From positions 297,329 to 361,328 of the forward strand of contig NZ_JAPNJX010000021.1 of NCBI RefSeq assembly GCF_026626685.1: a stretch of 64,000 nt of DNA, written 5' to 3'. Made by a program: the position numbers and the translations under genes. Under the pieces are notes generated by a model. The model was not told the origin of the DNA and searched no databases. It saw only the letters and a program-made list of their open reading frames with translations. This document shows positions 17,679 to 46,353 of the stretch, one piece after another; within the stretch, counting starts at the first letter, position 1, and every line of letters starts with the position of its first letter. This DNA comes from Nannocystis sp. SCPEA4 (GTDB lineage: Bacteria; Myxococcota_A; Polyangia; Nannocystales; Nannocystaceae).

Positions 17679-17805
17679 GGTCGCTCCTCTCCCTCGAGGT
17701 CGCAGTATCGCCGCGGCGCCACGCGGGCGCGGCCCGTCGCCTGCGCGAGCGGGTGAGGCATGTCTCGGCCCTCGACGCGACGGATTCATCCGCGGCCGGC
17801 CGCCA

Positions 17806-17829
17806 CCGACATGTCCTCTCGAACATGTC
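17806..17829. repeat. Two copies of the 14-bp-period element (CCGACATGTC-ctct-CGAACATGTC) in the divergent S8-protease / FG-GAP-2 intergenic region
   Basis: Read directly. Confidence 0.6.
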
Positions 17830-17950
17830 CTTCTCTCCATACCGCCGCGACGCACGGCATCGGGCCGAGACGCCGCGCTCCGCGCTGAAACCCGCGACGC
17901 GACGGCCCGCTTGCCTGCAGGCGGGCGAGCGTTCAACCTGTCCAGGCTCC

Positions 17951-20900
17951 ATGCGGCAGCGACGGCGCTCGATTCCACGCCTGGCCGGTGTCGCGGCCCT
18001 CGGGGCGTTGCTGAGCCTCGCCTGTCGCTACGAGGAGCCGTGCGGCTCGCTGGCGCCGCTGTGCGCCGACGCGGGGCGCTGGCGGACCACGGCGACGCGG
18101 GTGCACGACGCGGTGGTGCTGGACTTCGACGGTGACGGCGAGGACGAGGCCGTGGTGCTGTCGCGCAGCAGTTGGCTGCTCGCGCTCGGGTACGGCGACG
18201 GCTGGAGTTCGACGATCCACTTCGACCGCGAGCCCGTCGGCCTCGAGGCGCTCCCGGGCGAGGTCGCGGTAGCGCTGAGCGAACCGCCGCAGATCGAGGT
18301 CTTCGGCGTCGACGATCGCGGTCGACTCGCGCGGCGGCGGACCATTCCCCTGAGCGAGAGCCCGGCGGCGCTCCGCGCCTGCGACCTCGCCGGCGACGGC
18401 GAACCAGAGTTGATCGCGAGCTTGCCCGAGCGGGGCCGGCTCGCGGTCGTCGATCCGTACGCGGGCGACGTGCGCGAGTACCCGGCGGGGAGTCGACCGT
18501 CGGCGCTCGCGGTCGGCGACGTCGATGGCGACGCGCGGCCCGACGTGGTCGTCGTCGACGAGGCCGCGGGCGCGCTGCAGGTCCTCCGCGGCGCGGGCGA
18601 CGGGCGGCTGCTGCGGCCGTCGCCGAGCCCGTCGTCGCCGCAGGCGCTCTGGCTCGAGCTGGCCGATCACGACGGCGACGGCGACCTCGACGCGGTCACG
18701 CGCGACGAGACGAACGTGCGGGTCCACCACAACGACGGCGGCCGCCTGGCCAGCCCGAGCGCGCTGGCGATCGCCGGCGACCTGCCCACCGGCGCGGGCC
18801 TGGTCGTCGGTCCGGCGGCGACGAACGGCCTGACCGGCATCGGCGCCCCGGTGACGGAGAAGCTACGGACCTGGTTCGGCAAGGGCGCGGCCTTCCTCGG
18901 GCACTCCGATCGTTATCTGCGCGAGCCCGTCGAGTGGGTCGGCCCCGGCCGGGACGAACTCGTGCTGGTCGGCGGGAGCCGCTCCCTGACACGCCTCCGG
19001 TGGGGTTCCAGCGCGTCCGTGATCGAAGTCTGGAGCAGCGAGCTCGGCCCCTGGATCGGGACCGGGCCGGCGCTGGCGACGGGCGACCTCGACGGCGATC
19101 ACCTGCTCGACTTCGCCGCCACCACGGGCGACACGCTGCGCCTGTTCCGCGGCCGCGCGGACCTCGGGTTCGAGTCGATGGCGCAGTTCGAGCTCGACGA
19201 CTACGCGACCGCGGTGGCGATCGCCGACGTGACCGGCGACGGACGCCCCGAGGTCGTCGTCAACGAGCAGGCCCGGGCGCGCGTGTTCTTCCGCGACGAC
19301 GACGGCCAGTTCGGCGCGGGCCTGAGCTTCGCGCCGAGCGTCCCGCCGCAGGCGCTGGTGGCGTTGCGAACCGGTCCGGACCAGCCGGTCGTGATCGTGG
19401 CGTGGCCTCGCCCGTCGTTCGGCCTGACCGAGACGCCCGGAGCGACGTTGCTGCGCTTCGCCGGCGACTACACCGTCGCGCTCGGCGAGCTCGCCGAAGG
19501 GCTGCATGTCGATGCCCTCGTCGCGGTCGACGTCGACGAGGACGGCGTCGACGAGCCGCTGATCCTCGGGCGACGCGACGGGACCGTGGTGCTCACGCGC
19601 ATGACCCCCGCGGGCGAGGGCTTCGCGCCCGGCCCGGAGCACGATCTGGCGGCGCTGTCCGGGCTCCCGCTGGAACCGGACATCTTTGCGTTCCTGGCGG
19701 CGGCCGACCTCGACGGCGACGGTGAGCCCGAGGCGTTCATCGACGCTCCCGGCGGTCGCCTTCGCATCGAAGGGCTCGCCGACGACGCGCCGCAGGCGAC
19801 CTTCGAGGAGCAGCTGCCACCGACGGACCTGCGCGACGTGGACGGTGACGGGCAGCTCGACGCGGTGTACCTGTTCGCCCGATACTTCTATTATTATCAC
19901 GGTCACGGCGACGGGACATTCGAGACCGAACTCCGCGGTCACATGATTCGGGACAACGATGCGATCTTCGCTGCCGACCCCGCGGCGCAGTTCGACCTCC
20001 TCACGCTGAGCAATGTCGTATCCGCCTACCTCACCCGCGATACGATGAGTCTCCGCGGGGCGGGTGACACGTTCGGCTTCCCCGGGCCCGCGGCCGAGTT
20101 CGTCCGCGCGGACCTCGATCTCGACGGCCTCGACGACATCGTGACCATGAGCGCGGACGGCGGGATCGCGGCGATGTGGGGCAGCGAGACCGACCCGCTG
20201 GAGCGCGCCGAGAGCCTCGACGAGCACGGGATGGCCGTCGGCGACCTCGACGGCGACGGCCGCCCCGAGGTCCTGTGGCTCGACGGATCCGGGCTTTACG
20301 CCCAACGCGCCTTTCCTCGACGCCAGGAGCCGGAGCTCGTGCTCGACGACTCCGAGGTGGGGTGGATCGTGCGGCTGGTGATCGCGGACGTCGACGCCGA
20401 CGCGCGGGCCGACCTCGTCGCGCTGCGGGTCGACGACGACCAGATCGCGCTGGAGGTGGCCCATGGCACCGCCGAGCCGCTCCGATTCGCACCGTGGCGC
20501 ACGATCGCGACCGTGTCGGAGTACGACACCGCGGCCATGCAGATCGGCGACGCCGACGGCGACGGCAACCTCGACGTCCTCGTCGATCCCGCGACGACGC
20601 CGAGCGTCCTCGTGCGGGGCCTCGGCTCGCGCGAGTGGGCCGAACCGGAGCCGCTGCCGGGCGAACGGGCGCTGTTCAGCCGCGCCGGCGCAGATGGGCG
20701 GGTCGACCTGTTGACGCAGGACGGCGCGACAATCCATCGCCACACAGGCGGCGATCCCGGGCGCCGCAGCCCGCTCGTGACGGTCGACGCCGCCGTCCTG
20801 GTGGGCGCGGCCGATGCCGACGGCGACGGCCGCTACGACCTCGCGGTCACCGACGGGGAGCGGACGTCCGTGTGGCTGCTCGGGGACGACGGCCCCACGC

Positions 20901-21052
20901 GCGTGTCGCTCCTCGAGGCGCCGTTCGACGCCGTCGCCGTCGATTTCCCCGACCTCGACGGCGACGGCCGCCCCGATCTCGTCGCGCTCAGTTCGTTCGG
21001 GGACCTGTTCATCCGCCGCACCCGCGCGCGCGTCCCGGCACCCGCGCCCTAG
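17951..21052 (+). CDS. FG-GAP/VCBS-repeat lipoprotein, paralog of 12005..15106
   Basis: Start at ATG 17951 (MRQRRRSIPRLAGVAALGALLSLAC lipobox); ~50% identity to the first FG-GAP protein across its length with the same DxDGDG motifs; divergent from the S8 protease gene. Confidence 0.8.
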   Translation: MRQRRRSIPRLAGVAALGALLSLACRYEEPCGSLAPLCADAGRWRTTATRVHDAVVLDFDGDGEDEAVVLSRSSWLLALGYGDGWSSTIHFDREPVGLEALPGEVAVALSEPPQIEVFGVDDRGRLARRRTIPLSESPAALRACDLAGDGEPELIASLPERGRLAVVDPYAGDVREYPAGSRPSALAVGDVDGDARPDVVVVDEAAGALQVLRGAGDGRLLRPSPSPSSPQALWLELADHDGDGDLDAVTRDETNVRVHHNDGGRLASPSALAIAGDLPTGAGLVVGPAATNGLTGIGAPVTEKLRTWFGKGAAFLGHSDRYLREPVEWVGPGRDELVLVGGSRSLTRLRWGSSASVIEVWSSELGPWIGTGPALATGDLDGDHLLDFAATTGDTLRLFRGRADLGFESMAQFELDDYATAVAIADVTGDGRPEVVVNEQARARVFFRDDDGQFGAGLSFAPSVPPQALVALRTGPDQPVVIVAWPRPSFGLTETPGATLLRFAGDYTVALGELAEGLHVDALVAVDVDEDGVDEPLILGRRDGTVVLTRMTPAGEGFAPGPEHDLAALSGLPLEPDIFAFLAAADLDGDGEPEAFIDAPGGRLRIEGLADDAPQATFEEQLPPTDLRDVDGDGQLDAVYLFARYFYYYHGHGDGTFETELRGHMIRDNDAIFAADPAAQFDLLTLSNVVSAYLTRDTMSLRGAGDTFGFPGPAAEFVRADLDLDGLDDIVTMSADGGIAAMWGSETDPLERAESLDEHGMAVGDLDGDGRPEVLWLDGSGLYAQRAFPRRQEPELVLDDSEVGWIVRLVIADVDADARADLVALRVDDDQIALEVAHGTAEPLRFAPWRTIATVSEYDTAAMQIGDADGDGNLDVLVDPATTPSVLVRGLGSREWAEPEPLPGERALFSRAGADGRVDLLTQDGATIHRHTGGDPGRRSPLVTVDAAVLVGAADADGDGRYDLAVTDGERTSVWLLGDDGPTRVSLLEAPFDAVAVDFPDLDGDGRPDLVALSSFGDLFIRRTRARVPAPAP

Positions 21053-21171
21053 CGCCGCATTCGCGTCACTCGAACAGTCAGCGCATCCGAGCACGAAGTG
21101 GGCAAATACGGCGGGGGACGGCAGACCAATTCGCACGTCGGGTGGGCCCGGAGCGCGGTTATTTCCCCGTC

Positions 21172-21197
21172 ATTCACGCGTTCACGTGACGCTTCAC
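21172..21197 (+). promoter_or_regulatory. Three direct TTCACG repeats (TTCACGCG-TTCACGTG-N4-TTCACGAT) ~150 bp upstream of the Cys-rich peptide gene; candidate regulator-binding site
   Basis: Read directly from the sequence; spacings 8 and 12 bp. Confidence 0.3.
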
Positions 21198-21286
21198 GAT
21201 TTTTCGACTCGACGCAATTGATCGCGGAGCGGGCCTCACTGTCCCGGCGAGGGCGCTGATTCCAACGCCCGGTCCGAACCCTAAAT

Positions 21287-21305
21287 TCACGGCCGAGCGC
21301 CGTGA
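21287..21305 (+). promoter_or_regulatory. Perfect 7-bp inverted repeat TCACGGC-N5-GCCGTGA ~35 bp upstream of the peptide start; candidate operator
   Basis: Read directly from the sequence; shares the TCACG half-site with the upstream direct repeats. Confidence 0.3.
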
Positions 21306-21338
21306 GCAACACCGATAGATCGAGTCAAGGAGATATCC

Positions 21339-21581
21339 ATGCGTTCCATTCGTTCGTTCTCCGTCATCGCCATCGCTCTCTCGTTCGGCGCCATCGCCTT
21401 CGGGGCGCGCACCGCCCAGGCGAACATCTGCTGCAGCGCCCCGATCTGCCAGCAGGACTTCCCGCCGTCGCTGTGCGACCGCTGCACCCCGACCTGCGCC
21501 GAGGACGAGGCGCCCGCGGCCGCCGAGATCGTCTACGACGACGCCGAGCAGCTCTGCTACGTCGCCGGCGACGCCATCTGA
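21339..21581 (+). CDS. Small secreted cysteine-rich peptide/protein (80-aa precursor, ~52-aa mature form with 7 Cys)
   Basis: Excellent RBS AAGGAGA 7 nt upstream of ATG; Sec signal peptide MRSIRSFSVIAIALSFGAIAFGARTAQA|N; mature NICCSAPICQQDFPPSLCDRCTPTCAEDE...; high GC3 codon usage. Confidence 0.7.
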   Translation: MRSIRSFSVIAIALSFGAIAFGARTAQANICCSAPICQQDFPPSLCDRCTPTCAEDEAPAAAEIVYDDAEQLCYVAGDAI

Positions 21582-22335
21582 CGCTCGCACGGCCGGCGTG
21601 AGCCCCGGTGCGGCGCACCGTCCCCTCGTCCGGCCTCGCGCAGGTCCGGACGAGCCCGGACTGGTGAGACCTCCGGGGCTCTGCCGCCTCGTTCACCTGA
21701 CCCCCGGCGCGGCTCCTGCCGCCCGGGGTGTCCGCATGTCCCGCGGGACAGCCTGCGCATCCGCGGTGCACGTGCCCTGTCCTCGAGGTCACATATCATC
21801 ATTGCCTCGCGGCACGCCGCCTGGCCGGCACAGGTCGGCACGCCGATGACTCGGCCCCAGCACTCCGTCCCTGACATGACCCTTCAGACAGCTCGCCCGC
21901 TCATCCCCGCGGCCCGGCGACGCGCGCTCGCTCCAGTTCACCCGCGCACGCCACGCTCGACCTGACCCGGGGCCGCGACCGGAGCGATCCGGCAGCTCGC
22001 CGGACGCTCGTCCTGCGACACCGTGCCACCCGCGATCGGGAAGCGCCTGGGCCGCCGGCGCGCCCGGGCGAAGATGCCCTTCGGAACACGATCGTCGCAT
22101 CCGGCCCCAAAAGACAGGTTTACCGCCGGCCTGCGGGCCCCTGTCCGCCTTCATCCAGGACCGTCGGCTGCAGGCCAGATCGCCGCGGCCGGTGCGAGGG
22201 GCTTCCCCCGTGCGAACCCGCGCTCATGGATGGTTTTTCGGCTACCGAATCCGAGAGGTTCCACTCGTCGCCGATCGCGAGAAACCACCCGTCCCACGAT
22301 GCCGGATCGCCGGGGTCTTCCGCATCATCGCCGGC

Positions 22336-44562: not shown

Positions 44563-46353
44563 TCAGAGCAGCGGGCAATCGGCGGCCGGGTCGGCCGAAA
44601 GCTCGCACGTCGCCTCGACGAACACCCCTGAGTTCGGCGCTCCCGTGCGGAGGATGAAGAACTCGAGGTTGAAGCCCTCGGCGACGCACTCGGGGCTCAT
44701 GTTGTCGATCGAGCTCGGCGTCTCCCCACTGCCGTCGGTCAGCGCGACGAAGCACGACGTGGACCCGGCGGGCACCGTCCACTCGCCGCCGACCTCCATG
44801 CACGGCAGGAGCGCGGTGCGGGTCTCGTTCAGCAGATCGACCTCGAACAGCTCGCAGTTCGCCTCGAGCGTGGGCGTGTTCGGATCGACGTCGGCGACGC
44901 ACCTCGGCATGCAGGCCGGCCGGATCTGGCCGGCGATCTTCCCGGCCATGGTCGCCAGCGCCGCGTCGTAGCTGTCGTCGCAGATCGAGAACAGGTCGCG
45001 GTCCTCGCCGACCGCGAACGCCTCGGCGAACACGCGCTCGCGCACCGGCGGGATCGCGGTGAGACCGTCGGCACCGAGGCAGCCGGGGCCGATGCCGAAG
45101 TCGGTCTGGAACTGCGGATCGGGCGCGTCCTCGTACACGATCTCGGCGTCGTGCGACTCGTAGCCGACGGGCACGCCCGCGAGCATCATGACCCGCACCT
45201 CCGCGTCCGGATCGAACACCTTCTTCTCGTCCTCGATCGCCTGCACGAAGTCGATGTAGCGCGCCAGCGGCTGCAGCACCGCCTGCTCGTCGGGTACGTC
45301 GAACGAGCCGTCGATGCCGAAGTTGGCCGAGGTGCAGGTCTCGAACGTCGGCCCGGCGCCCGTGCACGCCACCCCAGCGTTCCAGCACGCCGCGCTCGTC
45401 GGCGCCGCCGCGTCCGGGTCCTCCCAGAACACCTTGTTGGTGGTGAAGATCGCGTCGTTGGCCCGCGAGCAGTCGGCCTCGTCGCTGACCACGATCACCG
45501 ACAGGCTCGCGTGCGGGCGCATGAAGCCGTGGTTGGTCGGCGACGTGTCGTCGTTCGCCCGGCTCAGCGCGAGGAACATCGACTCGAGGTGCGACTCCAT
45601 CCCGCAACCGGCGACCCCCTGCGGGATGAAGCACTGCAGCGCGTCGATCGGATCGACGCCGTCGGGCAGGTTGGACACGCTATTGATCTTCTCGACCCAA
45701 TTGCGCGGCGCGAGCGCGCCGTTCGACAGGTGCGTCTCGGTCGGCTTGATCGGCAGGTCGGCGTCGGTCAGCGCGCAGAGGTCGGTGCACGCCGACGACG
45801 CGTCCTCGCCGAGCACCTCGAACTCGCCCAGCGCCACCCGATCGATGCAGCTCGTCAGCTGCAGCCTCCCGCGCTCCGGCGTGGTGACCATCTCGTCGCA
45901 GCGCGGGTTGCCGCTGTCGGTCGTGGTGATGCCGATGCGGTAGTTGAGGCCCTCGATCCGATCGAGGAAGCTGTCCATGGCCGCCGCCAGCTTGGCCTGC
46001 CGCGTGGCCATCGACAACGAATTGTCGATCACGAACAGGATGTCGGCGTCGGCGTTGAAGGCGATCACCACCGGCTCCGTCGGCTCCGGACCGTCGGTCG
46101 GATCGCCCTCGGTGTCCGTGCTCGGCCCGTCGGTCGGATCGGCGGTGGTCGGCGGGGCCGTCGTCGTCGGCGGGTCGTTCGTGGTCGGACCGTCGGTCGC
46201 CGGGCCATCGGTGATCGTCGTGTCGTCGCCGTCGGTCTCCTCGCCGGGGTGGCGCTCGGTGCACGCGGAAGCCGCGACGATCGCCGAACACAGGCCGAGG
46301 GAGCGCATCGAGTCAAGCCAAGGAGTCGAGTTCATGGCGGAGTTATAACGCAT
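44563..46353 (-). CDS. Secreted lipoprotein with a vWA-like domain and Cys-rich C-terminal region; paralog of 10825..11874
   Basis: GGAGG 8 nt upstream of ATG 46353; signal peptide ending ...MRSLGLCSAIVAASAC (lipobox); ILFVIDNSLSMATRQ (MIDAS-like); T/P/D-rich linker. Confidence 0.7.
   Translation of the reverse strand: MRYNSAMNSTPWLDSMRSLGLCSAIVAASACTERHPGEETDGDDTTITDGPATDGPTTNDPPTTTAPPTTADPTDGPSTDTEGDPTDGPEPTEPVVIAFNADADILFVIDNSLSMATRQAKLAAAMDSFLDRIEGLNYRIGITTTDSGNPRCDEMVTTPERGRLQLTSCIDRVALGEFEVLGEDASSACTDLCALTDADLPIKPTETHLSNGALAPRNWVEKINSVSNLPDGVDPIDALQCFIPQGVAGCGMESHLESMFLALSRANDDTSPTNHGFMRPHASLSVIVVSDEADCSRANDAIFTTNKVFWEDPDAAAPTSAACWNAGVACTGAGPTFETCTSANFGIDGSFDVPDEQAVLQPLARYIDFVQAIEDEKKVFDPDAEVRVMMLAGVPVGYESHDAEIVYEDAPDPQFQTDFGIGPGCLGADGLTAIPPVRERVFAEAFAVGEDRDLFSICDDSYDAALATMAGKIAGQIRPACMPRCVADVDPNTPTLEANCELFEVDLLNETRTALLPCMEVGGEWTVPAGSTSCFVALTDGSGETPSSIDNMSPECVAEGFNLEFFILRTGAPNSGVFVEATCELSADPAADCPLL

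Follow-up and report, generated by a model that had tools for sequence, protein, structure and literature searches.

A 64,000-nucleotide (nt) stretch of the Nannocystis sp. SCPEA4 genome (contig NZ_JAPNJX010000021.1, positions 297,329 to 361,328 of the forward strand; hereafter the window) contains a short open reading frame (ORF) of 80 codons, running on the forward strand from the ATG at window position 21339 to the TGA at 21579-21581. We found that this ORF is a genuine protein-coding gene under protein-level selection. Its product belongs to a family of small, predicted exported cysteine (Cys)-rich peptides of soil myxobacteria and acidobacteria, which appears to be previously undescribed; every source that names a family member calls it only a "hypothetical protein". 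With its export and knot components included, the reading that we consider probable is that the mature peptide is a disulfide-knotted binder acting in the extracellular space or the periplasm.

A small, predicted exported Cys-rich peptide and its family

The precursor of 80 amino acids (aa) starts with the predicted signal sequence MRSIRSFSVIAIALSFGAIAFGARTAQA, which is followed by a mature part of 52 aa with seven Cys. All features expected of a signal peptidase I substrate are present, namely an n-region (MRSIR), a hydrophobic core with a hydropathy peak of 2.2 (residues 6-21), and AQA at -3/-1, whereas neither a lipobox nor a twin-arginine motif occurs in the precursor N-terminus. The mature part is acidic, with a mass of 5511 Da (5.5 kDa) and an isoelectric point (pI) of 4.05. 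The gene, the signal, and the seven-Cys mature part had all been proposed in a first-pass annotation made from the letters of the window, and all of them are present. The same annotation had credited the gene with the best Shine-Dalgarno sequence in the window; it is among the best but not uniquely so, as AAGGAG plus ATG is also found at 46321. Strong GGAG(G) sites occur at the same spacing in every family locus inspected. No second copy of the peptide gene was found in the window by tblastn or by a regular expression for the Cys framework, and the other loci are single-copy as well, except for one tandem pair described below. The coordinates of all features are listed in Table 1.

To define the family, a two-sequence profile was searched exhaustively with HMMER against 1.84 billion representative proteins at a cut-off of E <= 0.001. 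It resulted in 25 matches, 24 of which are small proteins of 71-121 aa; the other, a repetitive protein of 449 aa, was left out of the family. A profile search of a collection of 5.8 billion proteins yielded 54 long-form clusters, almost all metagenomic and none with a Pfam domain. In an alignment of 61 sequences, the columns A26 and A28 of the AxA site as well as C32, C37, C46, C49, C53, and C73 are invariant, and M1, C31, and D67 are conserved in at least 90% of the sequences. The consensus of the family consists of the signal peptide, [AVL][IP]CCS..C, PP..C..C...C, an acidic linker, and VYD[DE]...CY. Long forms fall into two subfamilies, the Nannocystis type (subfamily A, CCSAPxCQ...) and the other type (subfamily B, LICCS[AV]CD..P...C.HGCSPSC).

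A metagenome scan seeded with subfamily B uncovered a short form of 52-73 aa, in which the signal peptide is followed by a 22-aa segment, LICCSACD.NP...PC.HGCSPSC, whose sixth Cys is the last residue before the stop codon (loci L027-L059 of our collection, e.g., L029:3956-4141 and L031:3980-4150); the scan seeded with subfamily A gave no matches. At least 225 clusters have the short form, and all those with a name come from metagenome-assembled genomes of Acidobacteriota (Thermoanaerobaculia and Pyrinomonadaceae), annotated as "hypothetical". When the Nannocystis subfamily was compared with the short form by hhalign, the homology probability was 97.9% (E 3.6e-13): the six-Cys core of the window peptide is homologous to the entire mature part of the short acidobacterial forms, from which the acidic extension is missing. 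In one short-form locus (L028:1342-1788, also seen in L036), the gene is duplicated in tandem with the two copies approximately 390 nt apart, and the second copy ends with CRHGCLGC.

Pfam scans of 26 members (DUF2282 included) and of the short forms gave no match, nor did NCBIfam for any form. Rfam had no relevant match in the gene and its region, and a PDB sequence-profile search gave insignificant matches only. Moreover, nothing relevant to the family motifs or to Cys-rich secreted peptides of myxobacteria was found in the searchable literature.

Table 1. Features of the peptide gene and its surroundings in the window (positions count from the first letter of the window).
Feature	Position	Strand	Basis or remark
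Segment of 3.27 kb bearing an FG-GAP gene	17804-21071		present in the window; N. radixulma and GCA_020073745 lack it
Three TTCACG direct repeats, including the palindrome TCACGTGA (21182-21189), followed by a T5 run	21173-21204	+	sequence
Most conserved non-coding block, CGACGCAATTGATCGC-N10-TCACTGTCCCGGCGAGGGCG; as a motif for genome searching, CAATTGNTCGC-N10-TCACTGTCCCGGC	21207-21258	+	candidate core promoter or regulator site
Stem-loop formed by the palindrome TCACGGC-N5-GCCGTGA plus one outer pair	21286-21306	+	33 nt upstream of the ATG; fold and conservation
Shine-Dalgarno sequence AAGGAG	21327-21332	+	6 nt 5' of the ATG
Gene for the 80-aa precursor, including the stop codon	21339-21581	+	ORF list, third-codon-position GC content, identical proteins in relatives, family membership
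Predicted Sec-type signal peptide	21339-21422	+	n-region, hydrophobic core, AQA cleavage motif
Six-Cys core NICCSAPICQQDFPPSLCDRCTPTC, CC-x4-C-x8-C-x2-C-x3-C	21423-21497	+	Cys conservation across the family; homology to the short form
C-terminal acidic extension that carries VYDD..LCY and C73, the seventh Cys	21498-21578	+	D67/C73 conservation; not in short forms
Stem-loop CGGTGC-GGC-GCACCG, possible transcript end	21606-21620	+	25 nt past the stop codon

Selection on the protein

The ORF was judged genuine because its GC content at third codon positions (GC3) is 0.94, because a 75% identical homologue is encoded among unrelated neighbours in Nannocystis punicea, and because the protein is conserved in the wider family. 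In a frame plot, third-position GC reaches 0.9-1.0 only within the ORF, and codon periodicity is confined to it. An identical protein is encoded by two other genomes, N. radixulma and GCA_020073745 (annotated as "MULTISPECIES hypothetical protein [Nannocystis]"; hereafter the sister genomes), whose loci are 94-97% identical to the window outside one 3.27-kb segment. N. radixulma was also the one genome found when the single protein was used in a capped scan of a genome collection. The N. punicea homologue is 79 aa long with the full set of seven Cys, and an in-frame indel of one codon separates it from the window protein. Its neighbours are entirely different: a metallo-beta-lactamase-fold gene and AraC on one side, and NmrA on the other.

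Between the window and N. punicea, the ratio of non-synonymous to synonymous substitution rates (dN/dS) is 0.82 overall, 0.27 in the signal, and 1.33 in the mature part (5 synonymous and 22 non-synonymous changes). This single comparison is ambiguous if taken alone, and it is the wider family that settles the coding status. For 14 subfamily-B genes, dN/dS is 0.34 in the mature part and 0.42 in the signal at a synonymous rate (dS) of approximately 0.6, which clearly points to purifying selection on the protein in this subfamily.

The first-pass annotation had named conservation of the nucleotides without the ORF as the finding that would speak against a peptide gene. What is observed is the reverse: across genomes with GC contents of 0.43-0.72, the family keeps the Cys residues and the AxA site. 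A spurious ORF lying over a conserved non-coding RNA or DNA element would be compatible with the substitutions between the window and N. punicea, which are spread evenly over the codon positions (15/9/12) and give the overall dN/dS above, and with the first 24 nt of the ORF being identical in N. punicea. However, the high GC3, the in-frame indel, the dN/dS of subfamily B at its dS of approximately 0.6, the conserved Cys and AxA positions over 61 proteins whose source genomes differ widely in GC content, and the lack of an Rfam match all contradict such an element, and we regard it as effectively refuted, with hardly any probability left to it.

Proposed cysteine pairing and mode of action

Among the 61 long forms, 41 contain seven Cys, 18 contain eight, and two contain 11. 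The odd Cys count that had been remarked on for the window gene is therefore not peculiar to it, and is instead a property of the family (43 of 61 long forms). The eighth Cys, where it occurs, is placed close to the terminus of a longer acidic tail. Short forms contain six Cys each, and the sixth is their last residue. The simplest reading of this pattern is that the six core Cys would form three disulfides, and that C73 would pair with the tail Cys where there is one and would otherwise be free or engaged in an intermolecular bond.

A model of the peptide built on this reading would be as follows. The gene encodes a stand-alone, probably strongly translated pre-peptide, which would be exported through the Sec pathway and cleaved by signal peptidase I after AQA (residue 28). 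Once in the periplasm, the six N-terminal Cys of the 52-aa product would pair up as three disulfides to make a compact knot, and this six-Cys knot may be the ancestral functional module of the family. To this module, the Nannocystis-type extension would add a short beta-hairpin carrying the seventh Cys, which may allow dimerisation; in relatives with a longer tail, the seventh Cys probably pairs with the eighth. The peptide would act outside the cytoplasm, and it would do so by binding, as a ligand or an inhibitor; it would be neither an enzyme nor a natural product with heavy modification. The conserved block at 21207-21258 would serve the gene as its own promoter, and the hairpin at 21286-21306 would be part of the mRNA leader. 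An AlphaFold2 (AF2) model has a predicted local distance difference test score (pLDDT) of approximately 85 for residues 31-50 and places a beta-hairpin (64-67/72-75) in the C-terminal extension; AF2 on a two-sequence alignment gave a pLDDT of 49.5, which was not usable.

Several observations weigh against this model. The AF2 prediction is only moderately confident (mean pLDDT 70.7, predicted TM score 0.33), and no structural neighbour of it was found in the PDB, so the fold and the Cys pairing are those of the model. The dN/dS of the mature part in subfamily A is 0.79 (0.30 in the signal; three sequences only). No match was obtained in a sigma-70 promoter scan, and the promoter was assigned from conservation. 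In addition, a LanC-like gene lies 48 nt 3' of the peptide gene in one lineage. Lastly, the short-form core is near-invariant (LICCSAC...C.HGCSPSC), a pattern that a metal site, or a motif recognised by a maturase encoded elsewhere, would explain just as well.

The last two points lead to the possibility of a peptide made by ribosomes and modified post-translationally (RiPP), in which enzymes encoded at other sites would turn the Cys into thioethers (lanthionine-type) or heterocycles, with the Sec signal doubling as the export route. Such a precursor would not be without precedent. Bufferins are MNIO-modified periplasmic copper-binding RiPPs with small, Cys-rich, genuinely Sec-signal-bearing precursors that become small, folded proteins of the periplasm, and they have been reported in Myxococcota and Acidobacteriota (PMC11626156). 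Their defining features are neighbouring MNIO (DUF692) and DUF2063 genes together with precursors of the DUF2282 or BUF_6/12Cys kind (PMC11626156). The window peptide resembles them in combining a Sec signal with a small Cys-rich product. The extreme conservation of the core motifs, the Ser residues adjoining Cys (CCS, CSPSC), and the usual odd Cys count could also be accommodated by modification. However, by Pfam annotation DUF692 and DUF2063 are absent within +/-10 kb in the sister genomes and in N. punicea, they are not present at the other family loci either, and DUF2282 and the NCBIfam RiPP models are unmatched.

Lanthipeptides offer a similar comparison, as they are also small Cys-/Ser-rich peptides, and the LanC-like gene (PF05147) lies immediately downstream of the peptide gene, on the same strand, in L005 and L006. 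On the other hand, this neighbour is limited to that one lineage, being absent from the window and all other loci, and it has neither a signal peptide nor a dehydratase partner. No dehydratase (LanB, LanM, LanKC, or LanL) and no other thioether-forming enzyme is encoded near the gene within the window, and the N-terminus of the precursor is a Sec signal rather than a lanthipeptide leader. Across the approximately 20 loci whose neighbours were examined, MNIO/DUF692, DUF2063, YcaO, LanB/LanM, and radical-SAM maturase genes are likewise missing. RiPP maturation consequently seems to us quite unlikely.

A second alternative is a periplasmic buffer for metal (e.g., Cu(I) or Zn) or for redox, with the Cys residues, plus His in subfamilies B and C, as the ligands or the redox-active set. 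The invariant His-Gly-Cys-Ser-Pro-Ser-Cys of the short-form core with its very low sequence drift, and the strongly acidic product, would suit this role. Several neighbours would suit it as well, including recurring redoxin/TlpA-like genes (one with an SCO1/SenC-type match), CutC directly upstream in L008, and the neighbouring S8 peptidase, which has a MopE-type Cu-binding match. Nevertheless, the Nannocystis subfamily lacks His, the neighbours vary from locus to locus without any of them being in an operon with the peptide gene, and no metal-responsive regulator or site was recognised. Furthermore, thiols exported to the oxidising periplasm are normally disulfide-bonded. Overall, a buffering role appears rather improbable, although less so than RiPP maturation.

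For a disulfide-knotted binder, the closest architectural parallel is STa, the heat-stable enterotoxin of E. coli. STa is made as a Sec-signal pre-(pro-)peptide from a stand-alone gene, and its bioactive C-terminal segment of approximately 18 aa has six Cys that form three periplasmic disulfides. The short acidobacterial forms, in which a signal precedes a six-Cys peptide of 22 aa that stops at its last Cys, are built in the same manner. They differ in that Pfam Enterotoxin_ST has no match at E <= 1, in the Cys spacing of the family (CC-x2/4-C-x8-C-x2/3-C-x3-C), and in their hosts, which are soil myxobacteria and acidobacteria rather than enteric pathogens; the window protein additionally has a 27-aa acidic extension with the seventh Cys. 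Alpha-conotoxins provide another resemblance: CCSAPIC...C (21429-21476) recalls the CCSxPxC framework of, e.g., MII (GCCSNPVCHLEHSNLC), and subfamily A shares with conotoxin genes a conserved signal and a more variable mature part. MII (2ajw) was the third-ranked PDB match of the family profile at E 1.5, which is not significant and serves as a lead only. Pfam conotoxin models have no match, and this family is bacterial, with six to seven Cys instead of four.

Because there is no sequence relationship to STa, the defining genes of bufferins are absent, and the conotoxin match has an E value of 1.5, the gene was filed under none of these three. It would instead represent a new family within the Sec-exported disulfide-rich mini-proteins. 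A bolder and more tentative proposal is that these genes may define a new and widespread bacterial class of mini-peptides, Sec-exported and with three disulfides each, that would be counterparts of ST- or conotoxin-type ligands and could serve as extracellular signals, toxins, or inhibitors. Acidobacteriota would use the 22-aa form, and Myxococcota the 52-aa form with the acidic extension and a reactive or dimerising seventh Cys.

Upstream regulatory DNA

The upstream DNA of three diverged subfamily-A loci was compared, namely the window, N. punicea, and a metagenomic locus (L013). The block at 21207-21258 has a three-way identity of 67-92%, and most of its flanks have 0-40%. Among the 64 loci fetched, its pattern occurs solely upstream of subfamily-A genes, and it was not found in viral contigs. 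This block is probably the promoter of the gene; by inference, and only as a guess, it may be an alternative-sigma promoter of the extracytoplasmic function (ECF)-like type, with GCAATT and TCACTG separated by 16 nt.

The first-pass annotation had pointed to TTCACG direct repeats and a palindrome, TCACGGC-N5-GCCGTGA, both of which are indeed present, and had interpreted them as a multi-site operator for one DNA-binding regulator. Copies of TTCACG on the + strand start at 21173, 21181, 21193, and 21286. Four copies within 119 nt are far above chance, with 13 on this strand in the whole 64 kb, and they are retained in the two sister genomes (94-97% identical overall). Besides, TCACGTGA is itself a perfect 8-bp palindrome, and the larger palindrome at 21287-21305 has no other exact match in the window. 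All of this would fit an operator. However, identity among the window, N. punicea, and L013 falls to 17-42% in the repeat stretch, where the T-rich run alone is kept; the repeats are not conserved between loci that have the promoter block, the hairpin, and the gene in common. A second site within one mismatch of the palindrome is also absent from the 64-kb window.

The palindrome itself behaves more like RNA. As a stem-loop, it folds with -11.9 kcal/mol (z -3.34), and none of 200 shuffles folds as well. Over five sequences, 95% of the cells are paired and a 6-bp dyad core is conserved, while two of the five are unpaired at the outermost position of the 7-bp repeat. Three one-sided substitutions in the stem (A-U to G.U, C-G to U.G, and C-G to U.G) retain pairing only in the + strand RNA. 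Because these substitutions keep G.U pairing on the + strand only, a hairpin in the 5' untranslated region (5'-UTR) is favoured over a protein-binding site; with five sequences, the shuffle control was not significant. An operator at these repeats therefore appears improbable to us, slightly more so than RiPP maturation of the peptide.

A large structured leader or riboswitch was considered and rejected, as the 186-nt leader folds no better than shuffles (z -1.1 and -0.3) and Rfam has no match. The segment 21185-21208 was flagged as terminator-like by a pattern scan; its fold is weak (-6.5 kcal/mol, z +0.35), and in the sister genomes there is no co-directional gene upstream of it.

The upstream regions of two subfamily-B loci (L005:7830-7960 and L009:5930-6105) have another motif in common, (C)CCGCATCTATC, with two copies in L005 and a variant, CCTGCATCTATC, in L009. 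Both loci also carry GTTCAA-N6-8-TATC-N-GGAGGGATCGATG just before the start codon. These motifs are a candidate regulatory signature distinct from that of the Nannocystis subfamily.

Genomic context

Neighbouring genes differ in every lineage examined. The upstream non-coding DNA is usually 230-630 nt long, and the genes look monocistronic. The peptide gene had been described as lying between two lipoprotein genes, and both flanks do carry lipoprotein signals in the window, but the upstream FG-GAP gene is absent from the two sister genomes. It lies within the 3.27-kb segment at 17804-21071, which holds a 1099-codon FG-GAP lipoprotein ORF. With approximately 72% identity to a portion of the second FG-GAP gene at this locus, it is a paralogue that was inserted between the peptide gene and the S8 peptidase. 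In the sister genomes, the upstream neighbour is the divergently transcribed S8 peptidase. Because this segment is absent there, the upstream DNA in common with the sister genomes begins at 21071. The proposed linkage to FG-GAP/S8 genes breaks down in N. punicea and the metagenomic relatives, whose neighbours are unrelated. Because the association is not kept outside three near-identical genomes, we discarded the idea that the peptide is functionally tied to its FG-GAP, S8, and 491-aa lipoprotein neighbours.

Thiol-disulfide oxidoreductases recur near the genes: DsbA in L009-L011, and redoxin/TlpA-like proteins in L050, L058, and L061/L062; a thioredoxin-like match in L052 is sub-threshold (19.5 bits against a Pfam cutoff of 26.6). 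Together with CutC in L008, these neighbours may fit oxidative folding of the peptide, yet they leave a redox or metal role open. Beside the short-form genes, on the opposite strand, there is a recurring set of a glyoxalase, a redoxin/TlpA-like thiol-disulfide oxidoreductase, and a flavin amine oxidase (L050:4201-7346, L061/L062:6252-9182, L058:4775-5986, and L052:4192-4776). In L009-L011, DsbA and NUDIX adjoin the subfamily-B gene. The LanC-like gene of L005 and L006 encodes 391 aa (L005:8285-9460 and L006:3516-4691) and follows a subfamily-B gene.

The surroundings had also been described as a non-coding, lower-GC island of approximately 1 kb. A dip to 0.60-0.65 against 0.72 overall exists, but it covers only approximately 21100-21400, and the 750 nt from the stop codon to the next gene have a GC content of 0.72-0.76 and lack codon periodicity. 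The stem-loop just past the stop codon folds no better than shuffles (z +0.18), which gives weak support for a transcript end; in the sister genomes its stem is retained and its loop is variable, and N. punicea has an unrelated, longer hairpin at the equivalent position. Further downstream, the approximately 700 nt at 21640-22300 before the next lipoprotein gene (GC 0.72-0.76) show neither codon periodicity nor an Rfam match and are conserved in the sister genomes except for a break at approximately 21637-21701. An exact 10-nt direct repeat, CGGCACGCCG, occurs there at 21810 and 21836.

Significance of the family

Animals, plants, and fungi draw many of their hormones, toxins, and inhibitors from small secreted peptides rich in disulfides, whereas to our knowledge very few families of such peptides are known in bacteria. 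The family described here has hundreds of members in two abundant soil phyla, and its peptides of 22-52 aa are short enough for synthesis or periplasmic expression, which makes them experimentally tractable. Even if their function should turn out to be mundane, such as that of a structural or redox accessory, there would still be a defined family of peptides and a corrected regulatory reading of the repeats upstream of the Nannocystis gene.

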